A DNA stretch of 64,000 bases from Escherichia phage EC128: the sequence record ON210139.1; one strand, written 5' to 3'. Every line of letters begins with the position of its first letter. The first letter of the stretch is position 1. The position numbers and the translations under genes were made by a program. Under the pieces are notes generated by a model. It worked only from the letters and a program-made list of their open reading frames with translations, was not told where the DNA came from and did no database searches. Below, in pieces: positions 48,646 to 63,569 of this stretch.

Positions 48646-48653
48646 TATAAATA
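48646..48653 (+). promoter_or_regulatory. Late promoter (TATAAATA)
   Basis: TATAAATA upstream of the 48679 ORF and rI. Confidence 0.5.
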
Positions 48654-48678
48654 GGTTTATCTAACTAAAGGGGTATAT

Positions 48679-48891
48679 ATGCTACAATTAACTGAAAAGC
48701 AACTTCGCAATCTTACTGTTCTTCAATTAGATGAAATTCGTAGGGAAGTTGGAAATATCATTTCAGCTTTGCGTCGAGAAGTATCACTCAACCAATCTCC
48801 GGCAGACTATACTAGATTGCGAAATTTTGAAAAATACCTTGATAAAGTTAAGGCCGTGCACCGGCACAAAGTAAATACAGGACAAAAATGA
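48679..48891 (+). CDS. Hypothetical protein (rI.-1 position)
   Basis: 70 aa ORF between tk and rI. Confidence 0.5.
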
Positions 48892-48903
48892 TAGGAGGCC
48901 TTT

Positions 48904-49197
48904 ATGGCCTTAAAAGCAACGGCACTATTTGCCATGCTAGGATTAGCGTTTGCTTTATCTCCACCAATTGAAGCGAATGTCGATCCTCATTTTGATAAAT
49001 TTATGGAATCTGGTATTAGACACGTTTATATGCTTTTTGAAAACAAAAGCGTAGAATCATCTGAACAGTTCTATAGTTTTATGCGAACGACTTATAAAAA
49101 TGACCCGTGCTCTTCCGATTTTGAATGTATAGAGCGAGGCGCGGAGATGGCACAATCATACGCTAGAATTATGAACATTAAATTGGAGACTGAATGA
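48904..49197 (+). CDS. rI: Lysis inhibition regulator RI (periplasmic antiholin)
   Basis: 97 aa ORF with N-terminal signal-anchor MALKATALFAMLGLAFALS; T4 position and length. Confidence 0.85.
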   Translation: MALKATALFAMLGLAFALSPPIEANVDPHFDKFMESGIRHVYMLFENKSVESSEQFYSFMRTTYKNDPCSSDFECIERGAEMAQSYARIMNIKLETE

Positions 49198-49580
49198 AAT
49201 TCAGCGACTTTTCACAAAGTGGAAAACCTTCAAAGGCAGATGAATACTTAGGTTTATTAATGGCTGCACAAGCTTATTTTCATTCTGCGCATTTTGAAAC
49301 TAAAAGTTATGCTAGACACAAAGCATACGATTTTATTTTCTCTGAGTTGCCAGATTTGATTGATAAATTTGGTGAGCAATATTTGGGGTATTCTGGTAGA
49401 AAATACACGCCTTCTATTCCAGATGCCAGTAAACTTCCTACCGACACAATTAAAATGATTGATCGCATACTAGACCAATCTAACAGCATTTACAAAGAAA
49501 TGCCTCCAGCCATTCAAAGCACGATAGATGATATTACTGGAATGTTTTACCAGAGCAAATATCTTCTTTCCCTCGAATAA
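49194..49580 (+). CDS. rI.1: Hypothetical protein rI.1
   Basis: 128 aa ORF overlapping the rI stop. Confidence 0.6.
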
Positions 49581-49584
49581 CATT

Positions 49585-49608
49585 AGTCTCCTTCGGGAGA
49601 CTTTTTTC
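49585..49608 (+). terminator. Rho-independent terminator after rI.1
   Basis: AGTCTCC-ttcg-GGAGACT hairpin followed by TTTTTTC. Confidence 0.75.
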
Positions 49609-49617
49609 ATTTTACCG

Positions 49618-49650
49618 GTTTACTTTCCATTTGAGCTGTGATACTATACA
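49618..49650 (+). promoter_or_regulatory. Early promoter
   Basis: -35 GTTTAC, -10 TGATACTAT. Confidence 0.6.
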
Positions 49651-49675
49651 ACCATCGGATAAAGAGGAGAACATC

Positions 49676-49864
49676 ATGAAAATTGAAGCACTTAATCAAG
49701 AAGGAAATATCTACGTCATCATTAACGGCGATTTTTTCGTCGACATGGATGAAGTTACCAGTGAAGAACTTGAAGAACTTCTTAAGAAACGTTATGATAT
49801 GTGTGATGAAGCTGCAACTCATATGGCGTGTGCAATATTCTCTCTTTCATATGTGGTGGAATAA
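49676..49864 (+). CDS. Hypothetical acidic protein
   Basis: About 62 aa from [10 protein letters not shown] after an AAGAGGAG RBS; track start 49631. Confidence 0.45.
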
Positions 49865-50067
49865 TGATTAGTATCGAACAAGCAGATAAAATTAAAGAAT
49901 TGGTAGCTTTAATTCGCAAAGCAGATGAGGAACTTAGTGACTTTGCTTGGTTTTCGGCAGGCATTGCAAATAAAGGTATTGAAGAATTTGAAGCTAAAGT
50001 TGATAATGCTGTAGAAGCTTTAGATATGTTTCTTGATGAAATTATCGATCACAATACGAGAGTTTAA
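49864..50067 (+). CDS. Hypothetical acidic protein
   Basis: 67 aa ORF. Confidence 0.45.
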   Translation: MISIEQADKIKELVALIRKADEELSDFAWFSAGIANKGIEEFEAKVDNAVEALDMFLDEIIDHNTRV

Positions 50068-50069
50068 GT

Positions 50070-50264
50070 ATGCTGACACACGAACAGTTTGAAAAAATCA
50101 TTAAATTAGCACGTGATGTTGAAATAGATTCATATCAATTAGCAGTTGAGCATTGTGAAGGATATTCATACGAAGGTATAGCAGCAGCTAAAAGAGATTT
50201 GGATGAATCTAAAGCTAAGTTAGTTCAATATCTTGAAATGATTAGGTGGAATAATGAAAACTGA
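50070..50264 (+). CDS. Hypothetical protein
   Basis: 64 aa ORF. Confidence 0.45.
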   Translation: MLTHEQFEKIIKLARDVEIDSYQLAVEHCEGYSYEGIAAAKRDLDESKAKLVQYLEMIRWNNEN

Positions 50265-50427
50265 AAAGCAGATGTTTTTAATGAAGCTAATTGAAGAATA
50301 TGCTAATGCAGTTTCTGACTATGAGTGTTCTTCTCGTGAAAGGGGTATAGCTTTCGCAAAGGAAGAAATGAAAATCATGGTTGATGCTCATACAAAGCTT
50401 CAGAATTTTATCGAAAACGTCATTTAA
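50254..50427 (+). CDS. Hypothetical small protein
   Basis: 57 aa ORF (below track cut-off). Confidence 0.35.
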   Translation: MKTEKQMFLMKLIEEYANAVSDYECSSRERGIAFAKEEMKIMVDAHTKLQNFIENVI

Positions 50428-50429
50428 TG

Positions 50430-50472
50430 GTTTACAAGTTGGCAAGGTTATGGTATAGTAATCTTGTCAACT
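50430..50472 (+). promoter_or_regulatory. Early promoter inside a stem-loop (PeSL-like)
   Basis: -35 GTTTACA, -10 TGGTATAGT flanked by the imperfect inverted repeat AGTTGGCAAG...CTTGTCAACT. Confidence 0.6.
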
Positions 50473-50487
50473 GCCAAGGAGAAGAGA

Positions 50488-50592
50488 ATGAAAGTTTTGT
50501 TTGTTGTGTATGTGATGATTCAATATAATTACCCAATGTTTACTTATAATCTGGTGAACAACATTATTGATATTATTCAAAGGAGTATGTAA
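50488..50592 (+). CDS. Short hydrophobic peptide
   Basis: 34-codon ORF MKVLFVVYVMIQYNYPMF... after a GAGAAGAGA RBS. Confidence 0.25.
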   Translation: MKVLFVVYVMIQYNYPMFTYNLVNNIIDIIQRSM

Positions 50593-50777
50593 TGACAAGT
50601 GAGCAGGCTTTTAAATTAAGAGAATTAATTGAGACGTATAGTAAAGCTGTTCATACATCAACAATTATTGATGAATCAGCTTTCTCCGGACATGCTAACA
50701 AGATTAAATACAAAACTCTTATGGAAGAAGCTAAAGTAAATCTTGATTCTTATATTGAAACTTTAATTGGTAAATAA
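50592..50777 (+). CDS. Hypothetical protein
   Basis: 61 aa ORF with AAGGAG RBS. Confidence 0.45.
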   Translation: MTSEQAFKLRELIETYSKAVHTSTIIDESAFSGHANKIKYKTLMEEAKVNLDSYIETLIGK

Positions 50778-50778
50778 T

Positions 50779-50928
50779 ATGAAAGCTGTAATTGAAACAA
50801 CTGATTTGTTCGGTGACCTAGTTATCGAAAAACGCGGTAATGTATACGTTCTGACGCAGGAAGACGATAGTATTACTATTCTTCCTATGGAACTGGCTGC
50901 GATTTTATCTTATGCTCCCTCAAACTAA
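50779..50928 (+). CDS. Hypothetical small protein
   Basis: 49 aa ORF (below track cut-off). Confidence 0.3.
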   Translation: MKAVIETTDLFGDLVIEKRGNVYVLTQEDDSITILPMELAAILSYAPSN

Positions 50929-51307
50929 TATTACAGGTGACCTCCAAGTTCGTTTTTATCGTGGCCTTTACGGCGGTAATATTGAAACTGAATTTATGTG
51001 TCTTTCTATCAACAATTGGGCAACATTCGTTGCCAAGGTGAAAGAATTCTTAGAATCTGAAACAGTCGAAACACCCGAAAAGGCTAAACTTCAATGGGCT
51101 AAAGATCGCGGTGCTAACATTATTAATCCAGTAGCTGCAAACTATACTACGACTTTGGATGTCAAGACTTCTTATGAAGATGGCGATGTCGTACTTGTTC
51201 GCCAAAATGATGATTCTCGAGCACATATTGTCACATTTACCAAAGACGAAGCTATTGCGCTAAAGACTTATCTTGATTCTGTCATTCCAACTATGATTTC
51301 AAAGTGA
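50912..51307 (+). CDS. Hypothetical protein
   Basis: 131 aa ORF; start uncertain, no clear RBS. Confidence 0.4.
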   Translation: MLPQTNITGDLQVRFYRGLYGGNIETEFMCLSINNWATFVAKVKEFLESETVETPEKAKLQWAKDRGANIINPVAANYTTTLDVKTSYEDGDVVLVRQNDDSRAHIVTFTKDEAIALKTYLDSVIPTMISK

Positions 51308-51313
51308 GGAAAT

Positions 51314-51841
51314 ATGTTTATTTCAAGTGGAAGTGGTTTAATTCGTGTTGAATTTAAAAATGACATCTTTCTTATTCAAGGAGATGATATTATTAAAATG
51401 AGTTATGACGAAATCAAGAAAATTTGTCATGCTCTTGAAAGTCATGGAAAAGTGAACGCTGTTATTGATATTGGCGATTTATGGGTGACACTTTATGAAG
51501 TATCCGAAGGATTTAACATTGAAGATGAAAATAACATTTTAGCTATTGATAAAAGAAGTGATTTGTTTGATGTATTAAAAGTTTATGAACAGTCAAATGG
51601 CGGAAGAAAAGCTGCATTGATTTATCAAAAACCACATTCATGTGGAACTGCTTCAATCATTTCAAATATTGAAGATGAAGATGAAGTTGATACTTATATG
51701 TGTGTTTTAAAAGCTGGTGGTGACCGTCATCCGGATTTTATTTCTATTCGTCAAAACAATGGAGAAATTTCATTATCAAAATCAGAAGCTGAAGCTATGA
51801 TTAAGTATTTAACAACTGTTACGCCTTCAATGAAAGGATAA
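51314..51841 (+). CDS. Hypothetical protein
   Basis: 175 aa ORF with GAGGA RBS. Confidence 0.5.
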   Translation: MFISSGSGLIRVEFKNDIFLIQGDDIIKMSYDEIKKICHALESHGKVNAVIDIGDLWVTLYEVSEGFNIEDENNILAIDKRSDLFDVLKVYEQSNGGRKAALIYQKPHSCGTASIISNIEDEDEVDTYMCVLKAGGDRHPDFISIRQNNGEISLSKSEAEAMIKYLTTVTPSMKG

Positions 51842-51843
51842 TT

Positions 51844-52305
51844 ATGATTATTAATGAAAACTCTTGGCACTATAAATTATTCAAATTGTTTAACGATGAA
51901 TGGCAACGACCTAAGACACTATGCGCATATTTTTGGTCTATTGCTATTCCTACATTTTTCGTTTCTATTTTTGGATGTGCTATACTCGTAGGGCTAACAA
52001 TTATTTGCGCAGAAAGCCTACAGCGTTGGCTTATTTTTGGTAGTTTATGGACTTTGCTTCCATCAGCATTTATACTTGCGCTTTTGGTTGTTTTACTTAT
52101 TATCGGTTCATTTGTTATTCCTGCACATTTGCGTGAAAAATATAAAGATTATAAATGGAAAAAGGATTATGCTTTACACGTAGAAAATATTGATAGGGCG
52201 TATAAAGGTTTACCTCCTATTCAACCAAAGAAATCGATTATCGTTGAATTTTTAAAAGCTCGTAAAGCTAAAGTATGTCCTGTTATTGAATATAAGGCTG
52301 AATGA
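51844..52305 (+). CDS. Integral membrane protein (two to three TM helices)
   Basis: 153 aa ORF with hydrophobic helices FWSIAIPTFFVSIFGCAILVGLTIICA and LWTLLPSAFILALLVVLLIIGSFVIP. Confidence 0.55.
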   Translation: MIINENSWHYKLFKLFNDEWQRPKTLCAYFWSIAIPTFFVSIFGCAILVGLTIICAESLQRWLIFGSLWTLLPSAFILALLVVLLIIGSFVIPAHLREKYKDYKWKKDYALHVENIDRAYKGLPPIQPKKSIIVEFLKARKAKVCPVIEYKAE

Positions 52306-53315
52306 TGAAAACAGTAATGAAAAGTTATTTTGGCAGTCATCTTTATGGAACTTCTACTCCAGAATCTGATGTAGATTTTAAAGAAATCTTTGTTCCTCCT
52401 GCTCGCGATATTCTTATCGGAAGTGTCAAAGAGCACATGAGTAAAAACACTAACAACACATCATCTAAAAACACTAAAGATGATATTGACCATGAACTAT
52501 ACAGTCTTAAATATTTCTTTAAATTAGCAGCAGATGGTGAAACTGTAGCATTGGATATGCTTCACACTCCACCTGAACTAGTGGTTAAATCTGATTTGCC
52601 TGATGTGTGGAAGTTTATTCAAGACAACCGTTCTCGTTTTTATACGACTAACATGAAATCATATTTAGGATATGTCCGCAAGCAAGCTTCTAAATACGGT
52701 GTCAAGGGTTCTCGTTTGGCTGCATTACGTGATGTATTGAAAGTAGTTAATCAAATCCCTGAGCAATGGATTGATTACCAAGAAGATGGTTCTATTAAGC
52801 AGCGTCGCACTAAAGTTGAAGATATTAAGCATCGTCTTCCAGAAAACGAATTCTGTGAATGGGTGTTCCATAATCATGAGAAAACAGGCCCACAAACGTT
52901 CTACACTGTGTTGGGTCGTAAATATCAGACAACTCTTTCTCTTATTGAGCTTAAGCAGTCACTGAACAAATTAGATGCTGAATACGGTGAACGTGCTCGT
53001 AAGGCCGAAGCCAATGAAGGTATTGACTGGAAAGCTCTGAGCCATGCCTGCCGTGGTGGACTTCAACTATTGGAAATTTACAAAACTGGCGACTTGATTT
53101 ATCCACTCCAAGATGCTCCATTTATTCTCGACGTGAAGTTGGGTAAACATCCATTTAAAACAGTTCAAGAGTTTTTGGAAGATGTGGTCGATCAAGTAGA
53201 AGCAGCATCTACTGAAGCTTCTAAGAACGGTATGCCTAAAACAGTAGACATGAGTTTCTGGGATGACTTCCTTGAGAAGGTCTATCTTGAAAACCACCGA
53301 AGTTATTATAAATGA
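52302..53315 (+). CDS. Nucleotidyltransferase-fold protein (Pol-beta-like NTase)
   Basis: N-terminal YFGSHLYGTSTPESDVDFKEIFV fits the NTase G[GS]-x9-13-D-x-[DE] motif; a candidate third acidic residue in ETVALDMLH. Confidence 0.6.
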   Translation: MMKTVMKSYFGSHLYGTSTPESDVDFKEIFVPPARDILIGSVKEHMSKNTNNTSSKNTKDDIDHELYSLKYFFKLAADGETVALDMLHTPPELVVKSDLPDVWKFIQDNRSRFYTTNMKSYLGYVRKQASKYGVKGSRLAALRDVLKVVNQIPEQWIDYQEDGSIKQRRTKVEDIKHRLPENEFCEWVFHNHEKTGPQTFYTVLGRKYQTTLSLIELKQSLNKLDAEYGERARKAEANEGIDWKALSHACRGGLQLLEIYKTGDLIYPLQDAPFILDVKLGKHPFKTVQEFLEDVVDQVEAASTEASKNGMPKTVDMSFWDDFLEKVYLENHRSYYK

Positions 53316-53317
53316 TA

Positions 53318-53343
53318 GGGAGCCTTCGGGCTCCCTTTTTTTA
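53318..53343 (+). terminator. Rho-independent terminator
   Basis: GGGAGCC-ttcg-GGCTCCC hairpin followed by TTTTTTT. Confidence 0.8.
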
Positions 53344-53366
53344 TTTCAAAAATTTTTCACAAAACG

Positions 53367-53400
53367 GTTTACAAGCATAAAGCTTTATGGTACTATACAA
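53367..53400 (+). promoter_or_regulatory. Early promoter (PeSL-like module with conserved leader)
   Basis: -35 GTTTACA, -10 TGGTACTAT, and the leader GGTACTATACAACTATCAACTACTGATACAGA shared with the module at 38611. Confidence 0.6.
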
Positions 53401-53433
53401 CTATCAACTACTGATACAGATTTGGAGAATAAA

Positions 53434-54402
53434 ATGAAAACTGTAACTATCAATAAGGGTATCTACTTCGGTAAAGAAATCTCTGGAACTTTTGAGCTCT
53501 TAGGTGAATGGTTCCCAGATAATGCTCCGGTAGATGCACAAGGAGATGGTAAAGTTTTTGTTGAAATTGACGGTAAGCGTCGCGGTGTTTGGGTTTACAA
53601 ATCAGACATTTCATATGATGGTGTAAAAGTTGAAGAAGTTAAAGAATCATATGAAGATATGAAAACCCGCATTAATAAAAGATTTAATGTTATGGGAATG
53701 ATGACGAATGGTATTATTAACGGAAACATTCGTTCATTAATTATCTCTGGTGCGGCGGGTATTGGTAAAACGTATTCTTTAGATAAAGCTTTGAATAAAG
53801 CAAATGATAATGGATACATTGAATATAAAAGCATTAACGGTAAAATCTCCGGTATCGGTCTTTATGAACAACTTTGGAATAATCGTGAAGAGAATTCTGT
53901 CCTTTTGATTGATGATGTGGATGTTTTCTCTGATATGGACATTCTTAATCTTCTGAAAGCTGCTCTGGACACTGGAGAGACCCGTAAAGTCTGCTGGAGC
54001 ACTGCATCTTCTTACTTAGAAGAAAAAGGCATTGAGCGTGAGTTTGAATTTAAAGGAACGATTGTTTTTATCACAAACGTTGACATTGACCGCGAATTAG
54101 ACCGTGGTACTAAACTTGCTCCACATTTACAAGCATTAGTGTCCCGCTCAGTTTATTTAGATTTGGGTGTTCACACTAATGAAGAAATTATGGTCAGGGT
54201 TGAAGATGTTATTCTTTCAACTGACATGATGCAAAAGCGCGGTCTTTCTGATGAAGAAACTTATAAAGCATTATCATGGATGAAAGTCAATGTTAATCGT
54301 TTACGCAATGTTTCACTGCGTACTGCTCTTTATCTTGCTGACTTTATTATGACCGACAAAAACGGTTGGGAAGAAATCGCTGAAACAGTATTATTAAAAT
54401 GA
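53434..54402 (+). CDS. AAA+ ATPase
   Basis: Start at MKTVTINKG after a GGAG RBS (track ORF starts upstream); Walker A GAAGIGKT, Walker B VLLIDDVD, sensor-like FITNV. Confidence 0.65.
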   Translation: MKTVTINKGIYFGKEISGTFELLGEWFPDNAPVDAQGDGKVFVEIDGKRRGVWVYKSDISYDGVKVEEVKESYEDMKTRINKRFNVMGMMTNGIINGNIRSLIISGAAGIGKTYSLDKALNKANDNGYIEYKSINGKISGIGLYEQLWNNREENSVLLIDDVDVFSDMDILNLLKAALDTGETRKVCWSTASSYLEEKGIEREFEFKGTIVFITNVDIDRELDRGTKLAPHLQALVSRSVYLDLGVHTNEEIMVRVEDVILSTDMMQKRGLSDEETYKALSWMKVNVNRLRNVSLRTALYLADFIMTDKNGWEEIAETVLLK

Positions 54403-55118
54403 AAAAATATTTTACTATCTATAAAACTGAAATATTAAATTTAAAGACAGGTATTAAGAAATACTATTATGGTCGACATATAACTAATAATATCAATGAT
54501 TCGTATGTTGGTAGTGGAAATTATATAGAACGTGTAAAAGTGTCAAATGACCACATATTATCAAAAACGGTTTTAGAAGTTTTTGATAATTATGATAAAA
54601 TGGTACAAGCTGAAATATTATATATCATGGCAGGTAAATTGAAATATGGGAAAAACTGTGTTAACCTGTCATACGGGGGTGAAGGAGGAAAGGTTGCAGA
54701 TGAAACTAGGATAAAATGCAAAAAGCATTCTATAAATTTATGGAAAAATCCTAATCATATACAGCATATGAAGAAAAAGATGAAAGAGGTCACATCCACG
54801 CCGGAAGCTAAATTAAACACTTCAATAAAAACTTCGCAACGATATAAGGACCCGGTTTTTGTTAGAAAAGTTAGTAATATTATTAAAAAGAAACTAAGCA
54901 ATCCTGTAGTAAAAGAAAAGCATATTAATGGAATTAAAGCTGCAAAGCGTTCTCATTTAACTATATGGCAGTATGAAGATGAATTATTCGAGCTCTGGAA
55001 AGAAACTAAATGTGGATGGAGAAAATTTACAAAGGAAGCTATAAAACACGGATATCCAAATGAACCGTATCGTAGTATGGTATCAACTTTTCAGAAAAGA
55101 CATTTAGAAGAATCCTAA
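54399..55118 (+). CDS. Seg-like GIY-YIG homing endonuclease
   Basis: N-terminus YFTIYKTEILNLKTGIKKYYYGRH plus VGSG...NLSYGGEGG aligns with the SegB ORF at 36835 (YTYKIT..IYIGVHS, MGSG..NLKLGGEGG). Confidence 0.75.
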   Translation: MKKYFTIYKTEILNLKTGIKKYYYGRHITNNINDSYVGSGNYIERVKVSNDHILSKTVLEVFDNYDKMVQAEILYIMAGKLKYGKNCVNLSYGGEGGKVADETRIKCKKHSINLWKNPNHIQHMKKKMKEVTSTPEAKLNTSIKTSQRYKDPVFVRKVSNIIKKKLSNPVVKEKHINGIKAAKRSHLTIWQYEDELFELWKETKCGWRKFTKEAIKHGYPNEPYRSMVSTFQKRHLEES

Positions 55119-55200
55119 GACAAAAAGGCAGTTCAGAAATAGATTATATGGACTGCCATTAAAAAGATGACTAGAATTAAACTGGTGAATGGAGGTAGTG

Positions 55201-55503
55201 ATGTTATACTCAAAGGCTCGTGAAATTTACGAAACTAAGATTAAAGAAGCTGTATTTCAGTTCGCAACGACAATGCGATGGACAAATGATTGGGAGTATT
55301 CAAAAAATCATAAGAAGCCCATGGTGACAAGAAAGGCTCATATGTTAGTGTTAATAGACCGTGAGCAGATTAAAGCCCGAGAAGCCCTCCAGAATCATAA
55401 AAAGGCTGCCTTTGAATGGTTTATGGATAACACTGCTCCTGAGACTAAGAAAGCGGTAAGCGCGTGGTTCAGTGGAAAAAATTGTGAAAGAAGTTTCTTT
55501 TAG
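55201..55503 (+). CDS. Hypothetical protein
   Basis: About 100 aa from the ATG after a GGAGG RBS (track start 55189). Confidence 0.45.
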   Translation: MLYSKAREIYETKIKEAVFQFATTMRWTNDWEYSKNHKKPMVTRKAHMLVLIDREQIKAREALQNHKKAAFEWFMDNTAPETKKAVSAWFSGKNCERSFF

Positions 55504-55505
55504 TG

Positions 55506-55540
55506 GTTTACAAGACCGTTCCTCTGTGGTACTATACAAC
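55506..55540 (+). promoter_or_regulatory. Early promoter (PeSL-like module with conserved leader)
   Basis: -35 GTTTACA, -10 TGGTACTAT and leader GGTACTATACAACTATCAACTAC. Confidence 0.6.
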
Positions 55541-55563
55541 TATCAACTACGGAGGAACAGAAA

Positions 55564-56091
55564 ATGAACGCTAAAGATATTTTCAACCTGGTAAATTACA
55601 ACGATGGTAAATTTAAATCAGAAGCACAAAGCAAGTTCTTTAATGACATCTCAATCGGAGGTGAAATCACTGTTAATGGAGGACAAATTTACAAATCCCG
55701 TTGGAATTGGATCGTTATTATCGATGAGATTGGTATTGTAGAAATTTACAAGAATACGAATAAAAATCGTACATTACACTGGTCTCGTGATACTAACGAA
55801 CAGTACAAAAAGGATAAAGCATCTAAATTATCTCGTGTAACTCAAGAAGATATTGAGTTCATCAAGAAAGATATTTTAATGTATGATAACTTAATTGCTG
55901 AAGAGCAAGCTGTTATTGATAAATTTGACGAAATTAAAGCTTCTCGTGAAATTCCTGATTTTATGAAAGAATCAGTAAATGAACGATACTCTCTCATTTC
56001 AGAGCGTATTGAAACTTACAAAAAGCAAAGAGCTGAACGCCAAAATACTCTTCGGAAGTTTGAAGAACGGTTAAAGACGGTACTCGCATAA
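55564..56091 (+). CDS. Hypothetical protein with C-terminal coiled coil
   Basis: 175 aa ORF with GGAGG RBS. Confidence 0.5.
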   Translation: MNAKDIFNLVNYNDGKFKSEAQSKFFNDISIGGEITVNGGQIYKSRWNWIVIIDEIGIVEIYKNTNKNRTLHWSRDTNEQYKKDKASKLSRVTQEDIEFIKKDILMYDNLIAEEQAVIDKFDEIKASREIPDFMKESVNERYSLISERIETYKKQRAERQNTLRKFEERLKTVLA

Positions 56092-56092
56092 C

Positions 56093-56117
56093 TGCTTTAT
56101 ACCAAGGATGGTATAAT
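56093..56117 (+). promoter_or_regulatory. Candidate MotA-dependent middle promoter
   Basis: TGCTTTA (MotA-box-like) 12 nt upstream of -10 TATAAT with TG extension. Confidence 0.4.
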
Positions 56118-56146
56118 GGTTCTAAGCCCTTTTAATTGAGATTATT

Positions 56147-56548
56147 ATGAAACAGTTGATAATTAAAAGATTGAATTTATTGATATGTTGTTTATGTATA
56201 GTAATTGCATATGGTTATTATGCTATTAATGATTATATGCATTATAAAGATTATGATGTTACTGTAGTTAATACCCTTACAGGAACTCAAGGAAAGGGGT
56301 CTAGTTTATCGTTTATTGCTGTATATGAACTAAATGACGGTTATAGATTTAGTGAATATATTTCACCAGAGATGTATTCTTCAATAGAAAAAGGCGATAA
56401 TATTACTGTAAGTTTACGTCCTTTCGACGTAAAACAGACATGGTTTGATAATATTGTTTGGTTCTTTGGAATGGTATTAGTTCAATCTGTGTGTGGTGCT
56501 TATATAGTCTTTTCAATCTTATTCTGTGTATTTAGTAAAATTGAGTGA
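56147..56548 (+). CDS. Membrane protein (N- and C-terminal TM helices)
   Basis: 133 aa ORF with hydrophobic helices LNLLICCLCIVIAYGYYAI and IVWFFGMVLVQSVCGAYIVFSILFCVF. Confidence 0.5.
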   Translation: MKQLIIKRLNLLICCLCIVIAYGYYAINDYMHYKDYDVTVVNTLTGTQGKGSSLSFIAVYELNDGYRFSEYISPEMYSSIEKGDNITVSLRPFDVKQTWFDNIVWFFGMVLVQSVCGAYIVFSILFCVFSKIE

Positions 56549-56555
56549 GGAAAAT

Positions 56556-57443
56556 ATGTCAGCGGTAATTAATAATGTCAATGCAGTAATTAAATCTTTA
56601 GTTAATAAAAAATCAAATGAATGGACTGTACTTCAACGCGACAAGTCAGATAAATTTTTTCATAAATTTAACCCAGTACTAAATTTAAATGTTATTGATA
56701 AAGATGTTCACGCCGAAATTTTAGATAAGTTTAAAGTTGATATTGGATTTGGATTAGAAAAACATTTACAACGAACAAACGAGTCTGGAATGCTTTTATC
56801 TAATCGCATCATGAAAGCCCTTAATAAAATTGGAGCATTGTCTCGCATTAACGCGAGTGAAATTCTTCGCAATTATAATAAAGGATATGACCTTTATGGC
56901 CGACTAATGCCAAAATTATCATTCGACCAAATGATTGCGGATTTGTGGGAAAATCAACGACGATTATTAGCATTAGGTGCTCGATTAGCTAAAGGTCTAG
57001 ATAAACAAATGATTTTTAAAACTAATAATACAGAAGACCTTAAATGCTTTAAATTTAGTACTCGTGGAGATGATTATTACGTCAGAGCTCACTCTACAGA
57101 TTATGTTAATATGGGGCATCATCTCTGTTTAGCTTTTGAAGTTTTAAAAGAAGCTGGAACATTAGAATATGTGTCTGGTGCTAAATGCCCGATTGGTTCA
57201 AGTTGTATTTTAATTTATCGCCCGGATGAATCCAGTTCATCTAAATTGCCTACAAAACCTGCACCAGTTCGTAGTAACGAAAAACATTCTGAACAAATTG
57301 ATTATTTTAATAAGCAAATTGAAGAGCTGAATATTTCTATTCAACGATATGACGATGAAATTTTCAGACTATCTGGATTGAGTAGTAAAGCTAAATCTGA
57401 ACGTGAAAAATTAATTAAAATTGTTGATTTACTTAAATCTTAA
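56556..57443 (+). CDS. Paralog 1 of a four-member tandem family (globular N-domain plus C-terminal coiled coil)
   Basis: About 295 aa from MSAVINN; shares the central motif L-x3-(R/K)(R/K)-x-L-x3-A-x-L-x-G-x-D and a C-terminal heptad-rich tail with the next three ORFs. Confidence 0.55.
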   Translation: MSAVINNVNAVIKSLVNKKSNEWTVLQRDKSDKFFHKFNPVLNLNVIDKDVHAEILDKFKVDIGFGLEKHLQRTNESGMLLSNRIMKALNKIGALSRINASEILRNYNKGYDLYGRLMPKLSFDQMIADLWENQRRLLALGARLAKGLDKQMIFKTNNTEDLKCFKFSTRGDDYYVRAHSTDYVNMGHHLCLAFEVLKEAGTLEYVSGAKCPIGSSCILIYRPDESSSSKLPTKPAPVRSNEKHSEQIDYFNKQIEELNISIQRYDDEIFRLSGLSSKAKSEREKLIKIVDLLKS

Positions 57444-57451
57444 GGAACACC

Positions 57452-58471
57452 ATGAAAACTCGTTCTCAAATTGAAGATATGGTTCGTAATGCCAGTTATA
57501 CTCGTGATGTTATGACATTTTTGTGCCAAAATAATTTAGACCCTGATAAAGTTAATCGTGATATTCACTTTAAATATCTAAATAGCATTGAATTGTTACG
57601 TCATTTTAGTAAAGCGGGGTATATTACACAAATGACTGCTCGTGAGCAGCTCACCGATTTCTGTAAAACTATTGATTATAAAAATCCTCTATTTGTTCAA
57701 GGCGTTGGTCAGAGTAAGGTCGATTTATCATCTGGATTTTTCAATCCAAATCATTATCGTCTTGAATGGAGATTTATTGCTCTATTCCGTAAACAATTAA
57801 AGCAAATTTTGTCTACTGCTAGTCGATTAAAAGGTTCTGATATTAACTTAAAGAATCTGAAATTTGATGGTTATACTCTTCAAATGGAAGTAAGACCATC
57901 TAAAGAAAATAATAGAACTGCACGAATTAGCTTTAAGCCTAATACTAAAAATTCTCTTTCAATTTGTGAATGCCTTAAATCGCAGTTGACAGAAGCATTT
58001 AAGTATATGGATGTTGTTGCTGCTGTTCAATCTAAGATTTTACCTCGTTTTGAGCGAAATTGGGAACATACAACAACATATGAACTTGATATGATCGTTT
58101 CATTTAAATACGATTTTTTGAGAAAGGACGAAGTCCCGCAAGAGAAAAAGCAAGAAGTGCAAGATAACTTAAATTTATCCAATTACTCATCAAACGATCC
58201 TAAATTTTGGATGTATAGTTCAGGTAATAAAGATGCATGGAAATTCAATAAAGTGAATTTTCTTCCTGTTGAAAATCCGAGTCTTAAACCTGTTGAAAAA
58301 TGGCACGCGGATGCGATTGAGAAGTCTATCAAGGCAGTAGATGATGAACTCGTTAAAGCAACTAATGAAGTGTTAGAAGCTGAAAAGATGTTAGAAAAAG
58401 CTCAAGAAAAAGTCAAAAATCTCGCGAAGCAACGTTCTAAACTGAACAATGCACTAAATGCACTAAACTAG
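57452..58471 (+). CDS. Paralog 2 of the four-member tandem family
   Basis: 339 aa; N-terminus MKTRSQIEDMV like paralog 4; motif FRKQLKQILSTASRLKGSD; C-terminal coiled coil. Confidence 0.55.
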   Translation: MKTRSQIEDMVRNASYTRDVMTFLCQNNLDPDKVNRDIHFKYLNSIELLRHFSKAGYITQMTAREQLTDFCKTIDYKNPLFVQGVGQSKVDLSSGFFNPNHYRLEWRFIALFRKQLKQILSTASRLKGSDINLKNLKFDGYTLQMEVRPSKENNRTARISFKPNTKNSLSICECLKSQLTEAFKYMDVVAAVQSKILPRFERNWEHTTTYELDMIVSFKYDFLRKDEVPQEKKQEVQDNLNLSNYSSNDPKFWMYSSGNKDAWKFNKVNFLPVENPSLKPVEKWHADAIEKSIKAVDDELVKATNEVLEAEKMLEKAQEKVKNLAKQRSKLNNALNALN

Positions 58472-58500
58472 TTTACTTTGCCACAAGGATGTGGTATAAT
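58471..58500 (+). promoter_or_regulatory. Early promoter
   Basis: -35 GTTTAC, extended -10 TGGTATAAT. Confidence 0.6.
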
Positions 58501-58528
58501 GTTCTTACTTTCTACTGAGGAGATTATT

Positions 58529-59530
58529 ATGACTCGTAACGAATATATCAAATCATTCAATAGCGTTATTGATGATAAAGTTAAACCTGTGTTTAGTCAG
58601 AATAGTGTTATTTCCATTATCAATCAATGGCTAAATAATATTGATGTAAGCATTGTTTCTTCCAGCAAATTTATTCACGAAGTTCGTGAAATTTCTAGTC
58701 GTACAGATAAAGATGACATTAAGAAAACCTTTAAAGGGTCTCGTCTTCTTTCATACTTAGTCAACAGAGATATTCTTGGTAAATTTGGGAAAGAAATTAA
58801 ACGAACTAAAGATGTAATAGGATACAGTTGGTTCGGTGATGTTAATTCTTATCATCTTAATAATAAAGAAGACCCTGAGAATATTTTTACTCGTCGTTGG
58901 ATTAGTAATTTTAGACTTTTCAAGAAGCAAATTCTAAAATCAGCTTCTAAATTATGCTATGGTGATTATCGTCAAATCCATCCTTGGGCTTCTGATATGA
59001 TTATCATAAAAGAATATGAGCTTGATAAAAATAAAGCAGCTATTTTTGTGAATTATGAATTTTTTACACCAGAAGCTAATCAAAAGAACATTAATAAATT
59101 TTTCTCAATTGCTAGCGATATAACTCGTCAGTTAGAGACCGCATTACTTTGTATGGAAACAGTAGAAAATATTCATACTTATCCTTTTAAGAATATATGC
59201 GGTTGGGAAGGATATAAAATTGTAGTTAGTCTCCGTGAAGTAAAGTGTGCGTACTCACCGACTGATAAAGAAATTTACCAACAAAAATGTGATGAAATTG
59301 TGAATACTCCTAAAGAAGAAACTACCCTTGAGGAACTAATGGAATGTCTTGACGATTCGCCTGAACCAGTAGAAATTCGTCCAGAAGTTATTGCACTAGA
59401 AAAAGCTTATAAAGAAGTTCTAGAAATTTCTAATAAAGCGCAGAAAGAATATGAGCAGGCTAAAAGGATTTGGGAAGAATCTGTTAATCGCCTGGATCGT
59501 CTTGAACAAGCTTTACAGTTAATTAAGTAA
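58529..59530 (+). CDS. Paralog 3 of the four-member tandem family
   Basis: 333 aa from MTRNEYIKSF after a GAGGAG RBS; motif FRLFKKQILKSASKLCYGD; C-terminal coiled coil. Confidence 0.55.
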   Translation: MTRNEYIKSFNSVIDDKVKPVFSQNSVISIINQWLNNIDVSIVSSSKFIHEVREISSRTDKDDIKKTFKGSRLLSYLVNRDILGKFGKEIKRTKDVIGYSWFGDVNSYHLNNKEDPENIFTRRWISNFRLFKKQILKSASKLCYGDYRQIHPWASDMIIIKEYELDKNKAAIFVNYEFFTPEANQKNINKFFSIASDITRQLETALLCMETVENIHTYPFKNICGWEGYKIVVSLREVKCAYSPTDKEIYQQKCDEIVNTPKEETTLEELMECLDDSPEPVEIRPEVIALEKAYKEVLEISNKAQKEYEQAKRIWEESVNRLDRLEQALQLIK

Positions 59531-59582
59531 TTTAAAGCCAAGGATGGCTCGGAGTATAAATCATTAACCAAGTGAGAAGAAC

Positions 59583-60512
59583 ATGAAAACTCGTAAACAT
59601 TATATTGATTATTTTGACAGCCTTATTACTAAACATCGTAATTATCAGATCGGGCACAGAGCAGTAATCAATAATATTCTTCGTGATTTCCTTCAATATG
59701 TTGGCCAGGAAAATCATATCTGTAAAGATACTCAGAACGCTTATTCTCATTCGTTAGGCAATTTGCTTCAATGGTTTAAACGTTCTCGTCTGTTATCTTC
59801 TACTGTAGCTCGTGATAACATTGAAAACTTTATGAAGCCGAGCTTCATTAAATCTGCGACATCTATAACCGATTTGGTTGAATTTACTATTGTTAACGAT
59901 GTTAAAAAGACCCATTTGGCTGATTGGTTATCTACCATTCCCGAAACTAAATTTGCTGATAAATTCGCTTGTCAATTCAATGACCAAGTGAATATGCTTT
60001 TTAAGCATGCTCGTAAACTATTTACCGCGGGCGATGACCGTACAAATACAGTTCATGTTAAGGATTGGGTTATTGCTGATGAAGTAACACATAAGCCAGG
60101 TGGTTCATCAGTATTAATTAATATCCAGGTTCCTTATTATTACTCACGTAATCTCGGCACCATGAACTCTAGAGAAATTAATAAGCACAACAAAACTATT
60201 CGTTCGTTGTCTTATAAACTCCGCATGATGTTAAAAATCATGGACGTAGTAGAAATGTATGACGAAACCGAAGATAATGGTTCAATGCTGTACAGTTCAC
60301 GCATTCTAATTAAACTGAAGAACCCTAATACATATAAGCCAGTTGTAAAAGAACCTAAAGCAGAAAAGGCTGATAACCTGAGTGAAGAACGCGAATATCT
60401 CAAATCTCGACTGGTTGAAGTTGAAGCCCAGATTGCCGAACACACCAAATTGTTAAAAGCTCTTAATGCAAAAGCAAATGGTTTACGTAATGCTATTGAG
60501 GTACTGAAATGA
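59583..60512 (+). CDS. Paralog 4 of the four-member tandem family
   Basis: 309 aa; MKTRKHYIDYF; motif LFKHARKLFTAGDD; C-terminal coiled coil. Confidence 0.55.
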   Translation: MKTRKHYIDYFDSLITKHRNYQIGHRAVINNILRDFLQYVGQENHICKDTQNAYSHSLGNLLQWFKRSRLLSSTVARDNIENFMKPSFIKSATSITDLVEFTIVNDVKKTHLADWLSTIPETKFADKFACQFNDQVNMLFKHARKLFTAGDDRTNTVHVKDWVIADEVTHKPGGSSVLINIQVPYYYSRNLGTMNSREINKHNKTIRSLSYKLRMMLKIMDVVEMYDETEDNGSMLYSSRILIKLKNPNTYKPVVKEPKAEKADNLSEEREYLKSRLVEVEAQIAEHTKLLKALNAKANGLRNAIEVLK

Positions 60513-60805
60513 AAAAGCGCTTATTAGAAGATATTGCCGAAGCTTCAGATTTTCCTGAATGGACTCCATGCGCTGGGTTTGATAAAGGGCTGCTAGTTAC
60601 CGACGATTTAGACTTTAAACCTCCAGCATGGGATGCCATTATGGCTATGGTTAGTCGTCGTGAGCAATCTTCTAAGAATGTTCCAAACTGCCCAAAGTGT
60701 GGTACTGAACAGGTACAATTAGTTCATTGGCAGACTAGTATTCTTCGTTATAAATGTCGTCATTGCAAACACCGATTTAACCGAGAAGAAAATGACCAAG
60801 CGTAA
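60509..60805 (+). CDS. Small zinc-ribbon protein
   Basis: 98 aa ORF with C-terminal CPKCG...x17...CRHCKH pair of CxxC motifs. Confidence 0.5.
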
Positions 60806-61034
60806 AGAATATATGGAGATTGCTGAAAAGGCAGTCCGTGAATTAGCAATAGCGTATTATAATGAACATGGTAAATTTCCTGATAGATACAGCGTGCTTA
60901 AATCTGCTTTAACTCGTTCATATAAAAATATGCTATCAGAAGTAAGTGATATTATATACAAACATAAAGAACAAACAGGCCAAAGTCTTGATTACGACGA
61001 GACTTTTAAACAAGTATTAGGAATTAAGGAATAA
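60792..61034 (+). CDS. Hypothetical protein
   Basis: 80 aa ORF immediately upstream of nrdC. Confidence 0.5.
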
Positions 61035-61035
61035 T

Positions 61036-61299
61036 ATGTTTAAAGTATATGGTTATGATAGCAACATCCACAAATGCGTGTATTGCGATAATGCAAAACG
61101 TCTTTTGACCGTGAAGAAACAGCCGTTTGAATTTATCAACATTATGCCGGAAAAAGGTGTTTTTGATGATGAGAAAATCGCTGAGCTTCTGACTAAACTA
61201 GGTCGTGATACTCAAATCGGCTTAACAATGCCTCAGGTATTTGCTCCTGATGGAAGTCATATTGGTGGATTTGACCAATTGCGGGAATACTTTAAATGA
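61036..61299 (+). CDS. nrdC: Phage glutaredoxin/thioredoxin NrdC
   Basis: 87 aa ORF with active-site CVYC; recognised as T4 NrdC. Confidence 0.93.
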   Translation: MFKVYGYDSNIHKCVYCDNAKRLLTVKKQPFEFINIMPEKGVFDDEKIAELLTKLGRDTQIGLTMPQVFAPDGSHIGGFDQLREYFK

Positions 61300-61511
61300 T
61301 GCTCGAAGGAACTGATTATATCCATGATTACCGCGGAAGCGCGGTATATGTAGGTGATGAAGTTGTAGTTTATTATGGGTATGGAACTTTGATGACAGCA
61401 AAGGTTATTCAAATTAAAAATAATCGTGCTAAACTTGAAGTTTATTATTCTAATGGTGAAAAGTCTATTTCTAAGTGGAAATATGGCGATTGTATGGTCA
61501 AACTGGGGTAA
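61296..61511 (+). CDS. Hypothetical protein
   Basis: 71 aa ORF. Confidence 0.45.
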   Translation: MMLEGTDYIHDYRGSAVYVGDEVVVYYGYGTLMTAKVIQIKNNRAKLEVYYSNGEKSISKWKYGDCMVKLG

Positions 61512-61513
61512 AT

Positions 61514-61684
61514 ATGATTTACGATATTAATGTAGCAAGAGCTCCGTCAATGGTTACTATTCCTGCTAAAGAACTAGATCGTCTTCATAAAATTGAAGAA
61601 CTTCTTTGGGAAATTGAATCTGATTTGCCATCAGGATTAGAATCCTGGATTGATTATGAAGAACTTAATAAGCTTCGGGGTTAA
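61514..61684 (+). CDS. Hypothetical small protein
   Basis: About 56 aa from MIYDINV after a GGGG RBS; track ORF starts upstream. Confidence 0.35.
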   Translation: MIYDINVARAPSMVTIPAKELDRLHKIEELLWEIESDLPSGLESWIDYEELNKLRG

Positions 61685-61806
61685 ACCTTGGTGGGCGGCT
61701 AGATGGGAAACTGTAGAGCCAGAGCCGGAAGAACCGGTTTACACTGATGAAGAAACAGTATATAATGAACCAACGATAAATGACTTAATTGATATGGAGA
61801 TGGGAC

Positions 61807-62292
61807 ATGATTACAGTAGATAAGTGGTTTAGAATTAATCGTGCTGATACAGGGCTATGTAATTACTGGCCGGAACTTAGTGCAGGTACTGTCTTTAAAG
61901 TTCGTGAACTTGCAAAAGAATGTGAAGATGATATAGAGCCTGACACTGGAATTGTTGAAATTGAACTTTCCGACGGAAAGATTATTAATATCTATGATAA
62001 GCCAATTACATATTGGTGCTTATGGAATACTGAATCAGTCGAAAATGGCGAAATTGAAGAAGTTGTAGAGCGAACTAATCAAGTTGTTCAGAAGCCTAAA
62101 GCCGATTTTCAAGGTGAACGTATTTCATACGCACTAGCTAAATTAGCTGCGCAAGAAAATAACGATGGCTATGAAGGTAACCTGATGCAAGCTGCCGCAG
62201 AGTACATTGAATGGCTTGAAACTCAAATTTCTTTTTCTGACCAAAAGATTCGGCAATATAAGCGATTGAATCAAATGTTTTACAATACTTGA
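61807..62292 (+). CDS. pin: Pin-like protein (candidate Lon protease inhibitor)
   Basis: Start at MITVDKWF gives 161 aa, the recalled T4 Pin length; sits between nrdC and gene 49 as in T4; by position and size only. Confidence 0.5.
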   Translation: MITVDKWFRINRADTGLCNYWPELSAGTVFKVRELAKECEDDIEPDTGIVEIELSDGKIINIYDKPITYWCLWNTESVENGEIEEVVERTNQVVQKPKADFQGERISYALAKLAAQENNDGYEGNLMQAAAEYIEWLETQISFSDQKIRQYKRLNQMFYNT

Positions 62293-62333
62293 AAATAATA
62301 AATACCCTTATCTATTTAAGGTAAGGGTTTATT

Positions 62334-63545: not shown

Positions 63546-63569
63546 CCTCGTATAAATACGAATACGAGG
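63546..63569 (+). promoter_or_regulatory. Late promoter TATAAATA within a hairpin that also contains the I-TevII Shine-Dalgarno
   Basis: CCTCGTAT-aaatacga-ATACGAGG inverted repeat; TATAAATA at 63551-63558; GAGG RBS lies in the 3' arm, 8 nt before the ATG. Confidence 0.55.

Follow-up and report, generated by a model that had tools for sequence, protein, structure and literature searches.

A probable Seg-family homing endonuclease cassette at the stop codon of nrdC.10 in a T-even phage

A gene for an AAA+ ATPase whose end is overlapped by the start of a GIY-YIG endonuclease gene raises the question of whether the two form a paired unit, as the title of a first-pass annotation of this DNA implied, or whether the endonuclease gene is a selfish insertion. 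We addressed it in a 64,000-nt stretch of Escherichia phage EC128 (ON210139.1), here called the window, which is T-even phage (Tequatrovirus) DNA whose plus strand corresponds to the minus strand of T4. RB32, T6, AR1, RB33 and others share 98-98.6% identity with the region around the two genes, whose features are collected in Table 1.

Table 1. Features of the nrdC.10/nrdC.9 region, in window coordinates.
Feature	Position	Strand	Details
Terminator-like GC hairpin and T-run, 3' of nrdC.11	53317..53336	+	8-bp stem, 6 GC pairs, then TTTTTTATTT; consensus scan only
Sigma-70 / T4-early-type promoter-like site upstream of nrdC.10	53368..53396	+	TTTACA-17-TACTAT with TG; consensus scan
nrdC.10, 322-aa AAA+-fold ATPase	53434..54402	+	orthologous to T4/RB32 nrdC.10
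Mobile cassette, 733 bp	54382..55114	+	junction alignments with T4, T2, teqhal, Shfl2, ACG-C40, OES_C-3, sb3
Recoded nrdC.10 3' end, cassette-supplied	54382..54402	+	GAA ACA GTA TTA TTA AAA TGA = ETVLLK*
ATGA stop/start overlap, nrdC.10 / Seg-like ORF	54399..54402	+	...TTA AAA TGA / ATG AAA AAA; conserved in L009
Seg-like free-standing homing endonuclease ORF, 239 aa, intact	54399..55118	+	
GIY-YIG catalytic domain, ~aa 1-99	54399..54695	+	TIY 6-8, YYG 23-25, E72, N89, GGEGG 93-97
Helical linker, degenerate NUMOD3-like repeats, ~aa 100-186	54696..54956	+	five consecutive helices, 101-186
C-terminal helical domain, ~aa 187-239	54957..55115	+	W..YEDELFELW...F.K.AI..GYP..PY
nrdC.9 (DUF7203), downstream flank of insertion	55189..55503	+	

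The identification of the upstream gene as an AAA+-fold P-loop ATPase, T4 nrdC.10, is supported. A mechanical list of open reading frames starts it at 53263, and we used the start annotated in T4 and RB32, which is preceded by GGAG and had also been taken by the first-pass annotation (53434). The Walker A (GAAGIGKT) and Walker B (VLLIDDVD) motifs reported there lie at residues 106-113 and 156-163 and are not degenerate, as G106, G109, G111, K112, T113, D160 and D161 are invariant in a 27-sequence alignment reaching down to 54% identity, together with the sensor-1 N215 and with R238, R291 and R296. The predicted structure (pLDDT 89.9) has an alpha/beta core and a helical lid (residues 249-320), and Foldseek matched it at probability 1.0 to dynein AAA, ORC/Cdc6, RuvB, Hda and RFC, with TM-scores of only ~0.4. 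Pfam AAA_14/16/22 scored the protein at 21-22 bits, under their gathering cut-offs of 27-33 bits, and phmmer against PDB sequences returned noise only. The extra N-terminal domain had been put at about 110 aa, which proved too long: in the model it is a small, all-beta domain of about 60-70 aa, with five beta strands in residues 3-61 and a linker to residue 72, and the AAA+ module begins at helix 73-96. Relatives of this domain were sought and none were detected, and it gave no match in Pfam and NCBIfam scans.

The assignment of the downstream ORF to a Seg-like, GIY-YIG class was borne out by similarity to T4 SegA-F, by Pfam matches of its homologues and by a profile alignment to I-TevI. BLASTP matched SegB (6e-12), SegE (2e-8), SegF (2e-8), SegA (3e-8), SegC (7e-7) and SegD (7e-6), and the ORF also matched phrog_314 (5.6e-30). 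The alignment to SegB within the window, as previously claimed, was recovered by tblastn (E 3e-10), 175 residues aligning at 27% identity from the YYYG/KIYIG motif onward; this SegB ORF (36835-37500) is itself 97% identical to T4 SegB. A word-indexed search for homologues returned only 2 clusters, and an exhaustive search gave 1436 matches. An alignment of 39 homologues shows no variation at G25, E72 and N89 and almost none at Y8 and Y23. In an hhalign comparison with I-TevI (probability 88%) the catalytic residues line up, the two tyrosines with Y6 and Y17, and E72 and N89 with E75 and N90. The I-TevI R27 region faces a gap in this alignment, R26 of the window protein is not conserved, and the Seg-type family has, after YYG, a nearly invariant H27 and invariant D34, Y36, G38 and G40. 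The window protein, or its first 100 aa, gave no match to Pfam GIY-YIG (PF01541) or SegE_GIY-YIG (PF19835) even at E<=10, and these models match 11 and 15 of the 39 homologues, respectively, so that its membership is only transitive; NUMOD3 likewise matches 17 of the 39 and not the window protein. In the predicted model the protein has the three-stranded sheet with flanking helices (beta-beta-alpha-beta-alpha) of GIY-YIG domains. Foldseek, phmmer and a family-profile hmmsearch against the PDB gave nothing beyond noise, and neither the whole protein nor its first 100 or last 59 aa had a match in Pfam and NCBIfam scans. The C-terminal domain, presumed to be a sequence-specific DNA-binding module, is also found in HNH MobD-type endonucleases. 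Taken together, homologues, profile comparison and predicted fold support the downstream gene as a probable Seg-like GIY-YIG homing-endonuclease gene. It is already annotated, as 'similar to seg' in RB32 (ORF093c) and likewise in the T6 record; our literature search on nrdC.10, nrdC.9 and the endonuclease gene returned no paper on the Seg-like gene and no biochemical or genetic characterisation of it. Some database labels are misleading: AR1 and RB68 list the Seg-like gene as 'segE', and a T6 record gives nrdC.9 as 'HNH homing endonuclease'.

Synteny was compared with T4 and RB-type genomes. The order nrdC.11 / nrdC.10 / endonuclease / nrdC.9 is common to the window, RB32, T6, AR1, RB33 and others, and T4 is without the endonuclease at the nrdC.10/nrdC.9 junction. 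The T4 nrdC island does hold the HNH endonuclease MobD, as first stated, with mobD directly upstream of nrdC.11. The further proposal that a different endonuclease family occupies the island here holds only in part: there is no MobD at that place in the window, but the Seg gene sits elsewhere than the mobD site, two genes downstream of it, and the mobD position is taken by an unrelated 153-aa membrane-protein ORF (51844-52305) that the RB32 annotation describes as 'replaces mobD'. In matches from KMB22 and NIC06P2, extra DNA sits between nrdC.11 and nrdC.10, away from the endonuclease junction. On the downstream side, nrdC.9 likely has its true start at the ATG at 55201, which is preceded by GGAGG.

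The endonuclease gene lies on a sharply delimited segment, the cassette of Table 1, whose bounds, drawn by comparison with T4, are approximate; when T2-type endonuclease-free alleles are used instead, the left shared flank is ~2 nt longer (GCTGA). The cassette takes the place of ~35 bp of endonuclease-free alleles, GGTTACTCTTCTGAAATAA(A)TTCATAAGAGGCCTT, and has a GC content of 29.7%, compared with 36-40% in the flanks. It was found in 66 records, in one copy each and at 97-99.6% identity, always at the nrdC.10/nrdC.9 junction, and this junction is uninterrupted in 430 records, giving the cassette a share of 13% of ~496. When 8 carrier phages were compared with 7 endonuclease-free ones, all fixed differences fell inside 54382-55114 and flanking SNPs were shuffled between the groups; co-conversion tracts, looked for as fixed flanking polymorphisms between the same phages, were absent outside the cassette. 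The endonuclease ORF was intact in 7 of the 7 full-length copies sampled. Frameshifted copies occur in the RB3/RB10 (+7 G) and AR1/G157lw (-1 nt) records, and those of RB3 (+7 G) and AR1 (-1 T) could be sequencing errors.

The left end of the cassette falls inside the coding sequence of nrdC.10. In endonuclease-free alleles the tail reads GAG GTT ACT CTT CTG AAA TAA (EVTLLK*), differing from the cassette form at 12 of 21 nt. The EVTLLK type is the norm among nrdC.10 homologues and was present in all 6 sampled endonuclease-free Tequatroviruses, and ETVLLK was found in 0 of the 118 listed nrdC.10 cluster representatives with a readable tail. A JS98-like phage, L009, carries at the same site a 44%-identical endonuclease with the ETVLLK* tail and the ATGA overlap; its ATPase shares 98% identity with the nrdC.10 of JS98, a protein that has an EVTLLK end. 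These sequence comparisons indicate that the recoded tail belongs to the mobile element. In a third lineage, L024, the nrdC.10 homologue ends in EVTLLKL* and is followed immediately, across a spacer of 8 nt, by an endonuclease relative (46% identity), showing that the overlap is not universal. In all three lineages a conserved MKKY... N-terminus of its own opens the endonuclease. What we appear to add to prior annotation is this detail, that the cassette replaces ~35 bp and supplies a recoded nrdC.10 tail. The T4 allele is odd in that GAG is changed to ACGG exactly at the left cassette boundary, frameshifting the ATPase tail to TGYSSEINS*. We tentatively raise the idea, which we regard as rather doubtful, that the lineage has specialised on the nrdC.10 stop region, with the unit of ETVLLK* and the ATGA junction kept across two genera, the endonuclease-free sequence from GAG GTT ACT CTT CTG AAA TAA onward serving as homing site, and the T4 allele being a scar or a cleavage-resistant form.

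Against this background we considered whether nrdC.10 and the GIY-YIG protein could be a functional two-gene ATPase-nuclease module, for instance in anti-defence or inter-phage exclusion, with stoichiometry set by translational coupling. Such a module would be consistent with the fact that endonuclease relatives always adjoin nrdC.10 and that the overlap is conserved between two lineages with endonucleases only 44% identical, and pairs of an ATPase and a nuclease are a common design of defence systems. The first-pass annotation had asked whether the two genes ever co-occur: they do, in the 66 carrier records, but ~430 of the ~496 close relatives, and every one of the 118 listed cluster representatives with a readable tail, have nrdC.10 without the nuclease. 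Because the ATPase is so often found without the endonuclease across relatives, the paired unit is disfavoured and a selfish insertion favoured. In addition, nrdC.10 is still intact in records with frameshifted endonuclease copies, L024 lacks the overlap, and the nuclease has the full Seg architecture of GIY-YIG domain, NUMOD3-like linker and a DNA-binding tail also found in MobD. PADLOC models match neither nrdC.10 nor nrdC.11, and the nuclease matches only 'HEase' models. A defence-system-like ATPase-nuclease pair was rejected since the ATPase has no PADLOC match, and the module in general is, in our judgement, very improbable. The evidence points instead to the cassette as an optional, sharply bounded selfish insertion and not half of a functional pair with the ATPase.

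The ATGA overlap itself is as first described, with the TGA of nrdC.10 (54400-54402) lying over the endonuclease ATG (54399-54401). No GGAG, GAGG or AGGA was found within 25 nt upstream of this ATG, while GGAG precedes nrdC.10, nrdC.8 and segB. Given the overlap and an endonuclease ORF without a Shine-Dalgarno sequence, translational coupling is reasonable to propose, and it is plausible that the endonuclease is translated by termination-reinitiation coupled to nrdC.10. A late promoter, a hairpin sequestering the ribosome-binding site or a terminator near the start is known for I-TevI, segB and mobE. Here, the late-promoter motif TATAAATA is absent between 48653 and 63551, no RNA structure or sequestering hairpin was detected at the junction (z = 0.18), and a terminator was looked for near the seg start and none was found. 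Upstream, the terminator-like hairpin may mark the start of a separate nrdC.10 transcription unit, and the promoter-like site that follows it is the only such signal that might drive nrdC.10 and seg. Such overlaps have precedents in T4, where mobE has UAAUGA after nrdA and segC, segF, mobA and mobC overlap upstream genes, and for overlapping endonuclease genes without a recognisable initiation region coupling or re-initiation has been proposed to hold levels low (PMC2988022). In the window, the TTTACA-17-TACTAT-type motif recurs at 55507-55535, upstream of nrdC.8, and is promoter-like by consensus only; an ATGA overlap is present at a second endonuclease gene as well (14037-14849, minus strand).

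The same junction could be imagined to yield an ATPase-endonuclease fusion by programmed -1 frameshifting, since seg is read in the -1 frame with respect to nrdC.10, across an A/T-rich junction (TTA TTA AAA TGA AAA AAT). However, no X XXY YYZ slippery heptamer occurs in the nrdC.10 frame before the stop and there is no downstream stimulatory structure (the same z = 0.18), and the fusion was rejected on the absence of both. The stop codon and spacer that separate the genes in L024, and the conserved endonuclease N-terminus in three lineages, also speak against it, leaving it next to no probability.

The ORF might alternatively be a Seg-derived gene that no longer homes: it could be a decaying fixed relic, or encode a DNA-binding or nuclease protein domesticated for a different role, for example SegB-like amplification breaks. 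There is a precedent in T6, whose SegB promotes amplification of anti-defence loci, off-target breaks driving segmental amplification (PMC13096335). Polymorphic codons are synonymous versus nonsynonymous at 20:9 in the endonuclease and 38:2 in nrdC.10, so that constraint appears weaker on the endonuclease; this relaxation, the frameshifted copies, the divergence of the window protein from any Pfam GIY-YIG model and the gap at the I-TevI Arg27 region would all suit a gene that has stopped homing. On the other side stand the intact ORF in every sampled full-length copy, the catalytic Tyr, Tyr, Glu and Asn, invariant or nearly so in the 39 homologues, and the patchy distribution with shuffled flanking haplotypes, which suggests ongoing horizontal spread or loss rather than fixation. 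We consider this explanation improbable, though less so than the module.

We therefore favour, with considerable confidence, a Seg-family homing endonuclease gene on a 733-bp cassette at the nrdC.10 stop, with the ATPase as host gene and not as partner. The cassette would have inserted at the stop-codon region of a conserved early gene, where it overwrites six final codons plus ~15 nt of 3' UTR in the endonuclease-free allele and compensates with its own, differently encoded tail; because it brings this ETVLLK* end, the ATPase would stay intact. Having neither promoter nor ribosome-binding site of its own, the endonuclease would depend on the early transcript of nrdC.10, whose ribosomes would stop at the TGA and re-initiate at the overlapping ATG, keeping the enzyme's level low. 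In mixed infection the enzyme may then cut endonuclease-free genomes in or near the replaced ~35 bp, in or near GAGGTTACTCTTCTGAAATAA for the T2-type (EVTLLK) allele, a placement that we infer from only 15 genomes and hold cautiously, since the cuts of characterised Seg enzymes, according to work on SegF and SegG, reportedly often lie hundreds of bp away from where their genes are inserted. Double-strand-break repair would copy the cassette over, the intronless homing or marker exclusion that is said to have been shown for SegB, C, E, F and G.

In conclusion, the locus holds a T-even phage parasite of an ordinary and previously annotated kind, not an ATPase-nuclease machine. Its description extends the inventory of T-even homing endonucleases by a Seg paralogue whose insertion site is defined and corrects the database labels mentioned above, and it matters little beyond phage-genome bookkeeping. 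It nevertheless suggests how a selfish gene can enter a conserved gene at its extreme end without imposing a cost, by carrying re-encoded last codons and using the host stop codon as its own translation start. The recoded end also gives a concrete prediction for the target site and for the immunity of carrier genomes to their own enzyme.

Compared with known systems, nrdC.10 resembles initiator, clamp-loader and RuvB-type AAA+ proteins in Walker A, Walker B, sensor-1 Asn, conserved arginines and C-terminal helical lid, and differs from them in a Walker B with DD rather than DE and in its phage-specific all-beta N-domain of ~60 aa. With respect to the GIY-YIG prototype, the I-TevI catalytic domain (PDB 1LN0), the Seg-like ORF has 18% identity, is free-standing and not intron-encoded, and has the Arg27/His region replaced by the Seg-specific H.T...D.Y.GSG segment. 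It shares with T4 SegA-SegF the N-terminal motif set Y...Y.G.H.T...D.Y.GSG...E...N..GG.GG, a putative three-part plan of catalytic domain, NUMOD3-type helical linker and C-terminal DNA-binding tail, and its low-GC intergenic insertion between conserved genes, optional among T-even phages. Unlike the T4 Seg proteins, it is at most 34% identical to any of them (partial alignments), with 27% to the best-scoring SegB, it is inserted at nrdC.10/nrdC.9, where T4 has none, and its C-terminal domain resembles that of MobD and not that of SegB. Finally, as in mobE, segC, segF, mobA and mobC, the endonuclease start lies over the stop region of a host gene without a recognisable translation-initiation region, whereas here the overlapped host-gene end is part of the cassette and recoded, with the junction kept in a second genus.

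The window is Tequatrovirus (T-even) sequence, read from the complement of the strand used in the T4 map, and positions 53200-55400 are 98-98.6% identical to FL23, RB32, RB33, T6, AR1 and others. Gene order matches the RB32 record (nrdC.11, nrdC.10, ORF093c, nrdC.9). The end of nrdC.10 reads ...TTA AAA TGA; in the -1 frame the seg-like ORF starts with ATG AAA AAA. This confirms the ATGA overlap between ATPase and endonuclease reported in the first-pass annotation.

Features of the region and related ORFs (window coordinates)
Feature	Position	Strand	Basis or remark
HNH mob-like endonuclease ORF, 270 aa	14037-14849	-	Pfam HNH_4; between genes 13 and 14
Predicted membrane-protein ORF, 153 aa	51844-52305		phrog_944; at mobD position
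nrdC.11, nucleotidyltransferase	52302-53315	+	Pfam RlaP
Terminator-like hairpin	53317-53336		upstream of nrdC.10
Early-promoter-like site	53368-53396		upstream of nrdC.10
nrdC.10, AAA+-fold ATPase	53434-54402	+	RB32 gene order; AAA+ motifs
Cassette, 733 bp	54382-55114		alignment with T4
seg-like ORF	54399-55118	+	RB32 ORF093c counterpart
nrdC.9	55189 (or 55201)-55503	+	DUF7203
I-TevII, N-terminal 141 aa	63577-63999		cut by window end

No Pfam or NCBIfam model matched the 239-aa endonuclease; phrog_314 "homing endonuclease" did, at 5.6e-30, as did the PADLOC HEase models. By BLASTP against T4 proteins it resembles SegB (6e-12, 27% identity), SegE and SegF (both 2e-8), SegA (3e-8), SegC (7e-7) and SegD (7e-6). 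An exhaustive search gave 1436 relatives. Across an alignment of 39 of these, conservation is complete at G25, D34, Y36, G38, G40, E72, N89 and G93 and almost complete at Y8, Y23 and H27; Pfam NUMOD3 (17/39), SegE_GIY-YIG (15/39) and GIY-YIG (11/39) matches occur among them. Profile comparison with I-TevI (88% probability, E 3e-6) paired TIY with GIY, YYG with YVG, E72 with E75 and N89 with N90; nothing in the protein clearly corresponds to the Arg27 region of I-TevI. In the predicted structure (pLDDT 95), a beta-beta-alpha-beta-alpha N-domain is followed by five linker helices and then by a small helical C-terminal domain. BLASTP, the relatives' Pfam matches, the I-TevI profile and the predicted fold uphold the original call of a SegB-like enzyme and argue that the product is a Seg-type GIY-YIG endonuclease. 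Its C-terminal domain is common to MobD-type HNH endonucleases (T4 MobD, E 5e-6; the ORF at the mobD position of a JS98-like contig, about E 1e-8), which is the familiar module shuffling of phage homing endonucleases. That metagenomic contig (L009, Logan SRR25011262) encodes there, at 3004-3768, a 254-aa HNH endonuclease whose NUMOD3-like linker and C-terminal domain resemble the GIY-YIG protein (31% identity, E ~1e-8), suggesting a DNA-binding module common to both nuclease families.

Alignment with T4 showed that the cassette replaces 38 bp. It occurs in 66 phage records, always as a single copy with 97-99.6% identity, while the junction is uninterrupted in 430, which speaks against the paired unit suggested by the title of the first-pass annotation. 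Between eight carriers and seven endonuclease-free genomes, fixed differences are confined to the cassette, and flanking SNPs are shuffled among both groups. GC content is 29.7% in the cassette, 29.3% in segB and 36-40% in neighbouring genes. The ORF is split by a +7 G insertion in the RB3 and RB10 records (run at about 1794-1800 of the RB3 locus) and truncated by a 1-nt deletion in AR1 and G157lw (about 1975 of the AR1 locus); these frameshifts may be true gene decay or else sequencing errors. Across seven intact copies, 20 of the polymorphic codons are synonymous and 9 nonsynonymous; the corresponding figures for nrdC.10 in the same phages are 38 and 2. Patchy presence, boundaries, low GC, disrupted copies and codon polymorphism are in keeping with the homing life cycle of a selfish element, and this genomic comparison indicates that the endonuclease gene is an optional insertion and no partner of the ATPase. 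DNA upstream of nrdC.10 is likewise variable, both at 53316-53433 and further upstream (loci L003, L006, L007, L021, L022). About 260-475 bp of additional DNA lies just upstream of nrdC.10 in KMB22 and NIC06P2, with a 66-aa ORF in the former; in T2 an ADP-ribosyltransferase gene occupies the nrdC.11 position, and in ACG-C40 and OES_C-3 this region contains a small ORF and a DUF4031 gene.

The cassette also rewrites the end of its neighbour. In T4-like phages, nrdC.10 homologues terminate in ...IAEVTLLK or near variants, encoded as GCT GAG GTT ACT CTT CTG AAA TAA in 6/6 endonuclease-free Tequatroviruses sampled (T2, teqhal, Shfl2, ACG-C40, OES_C-3 and sb3). Carriers read GCT GAA ACA GTA TTA TTA AAA TGA (ETVLLK*), a tail of equal length with two residues swapped and 12/21 nt different. 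The cassette thus overwrites the final six codons together with roughly 15 nt of 3' UTR; the tail that it supplies is equivalent, and the stop codon of this tail overlaps the endonuclease ATG. In L009 the endonuclease is only 44% identical and the tail is again ETVLLK*, even though the ATPase there is 98% identical to that of JS98, whose nrdC.10 tail is EVTLLK; the gene caller made the L009 endonuclease ORF too short, the real start being MKKYYYVYKTT at the ATGA overlap. In a third lineage (contig L024, 46% identity) the gene directly follows an nrdC.10 homologue that ends in EVTLLKL*, and a spacer of 8 nt separates the two. These placements tie the endonuclease lineage to the nrdC.10 3' end in three phage lineages, and the recoded tail and ATGA junction travel with it in two of them. 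The L024 spacer falls inside AAATTATAAATACACGTATG (~2985-3003, ENA ERZ27235396), which includes the T4 late-promoter consensus TATAAATA; this match may be chance in AT-rich DNA. T4 itself carries an odd allele (locus L001 10344-11321; NC_000866 54343-55320): ACGG stands in place of GAG, precisely at the left edge of the cassette site (window ~54380-54402), and the resulting frameshift gives a tail of ...IATGYSSEINS* (325 aa), unlike the ...IAEVTLLK* (322 aa) of T2, five more endonuclease-free phages and homologues generally. The ancestral VTLLK* codons persist in another frame, and about 75 records have the T4 form.

Beyond the replaced ~35 bp, the sampled carriers and endonuclease-free genomes show no difference that separates the two groups. 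If immunity of carriers is a matter of sequence, the enzyme is predicted to recognise or cut a site overlapping GAGGTTACTCTTCTGAAATAA(A)TTCATAAGAGGCCTT. SegF and SegG cleave at a distance from their own genes.

Homologues of nrdC.10 (about 1000 clusters) come exclusively from T4-like phages or metagenomic contigs. Across 27 sequences, down to 54% identity, Walker A (G106, G109, G111, K112, T113), Walker B (D160-D161), N215 (sensor 1), R238, R291 and R296 are invariant, so the ATPase motifs first noted are intact and not degenerate. Foldseek with the AlphaFold model (pLDDT 89.9) matched AAA+ structures with probability 1.0 but TM of only ~0.4 (dynein AAA modules, ORC/Cdc6, RuvB, Hda, RFC, sigma-54 activators), and Pfam AAA models scored under their cut-offs. 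An extra N-terminal domain is present as proposed, at about 60-70 rather than 110 aa, since the model places five beta strands in residues 3-61 and the long helix 73-96 is already part of the AAA+ module; a Pfam scan of this domain gave no match. Literature mention of nrdC.10, as far as we found, is confined to a weak AAA match (PMC1524935), and one public record mislabels it 'clamp loader of DNA polymerase'.

T4 does carry the HNH gene mobD in the island, as the first-pass annotation stated, directly upstream of nrdC.11, and MobD is absent from that position in the window. The Seg gene does not replace it, since it lies at another junction, two genes downstream; the mobD position holds the membrane-protein ORF, which the RB32 record remarks "replaces mobD". 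Elsewhere, the HNH ORF between genes 13 and 14, a site without a gene in T4, is 46% identical to T4 MobD over its N-terminal 117 aa. Like the seg-like ORF, it begins in an ATGA overlap, here with the stop codon of gene 13. The I-TevII N-terminus, 98.6% identical to T4's, indicates that the nrdD intron endonuclease is present in this phage.

The seg-like annotation dates back to the RB32 record, and a published inventory of T4-related genomes lists two Seg-like genes in RB32, six in T6 and two in RB14 (PMC2993671, Table 5). Our literature search found no paper characterising this gene, which is an uncharacterised representative of a well-known kind in an equally well-known arrangement. We have seen no description of a recoded, portable gene end kept across genera, a tidy detail that is unsurprising for this class. 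Annotation errors have spread in the island: the gene is named 'segE' in AR1 and RB68, nrdC.9 is called 'HNH homing endonuclease' in T6 NC_054907, and nrdC.6 to nrdC.11 'thioredoxin' in many RAST-annotated genomes.

Unlike neighbouring genes, which have GGAG or GGAGG before their (likely) starts, the seg-like ORF has no Shine-Dalgarno sequence in the 25 nt preceding its ATG. No TATAAATA late promoter occurs within 48653-63551, and no RNA structure was found at the nrdC.10/seg junction. Together with the overlap, these observations make termination-reinitiation the simplest reading, whereby ribosomes ending nrdC.10 would re-initiate at the overlapping endonuclease ATG. This putative mode matches that proposed for mobE, segC, segF, mobA and mobC (PMC2988022).
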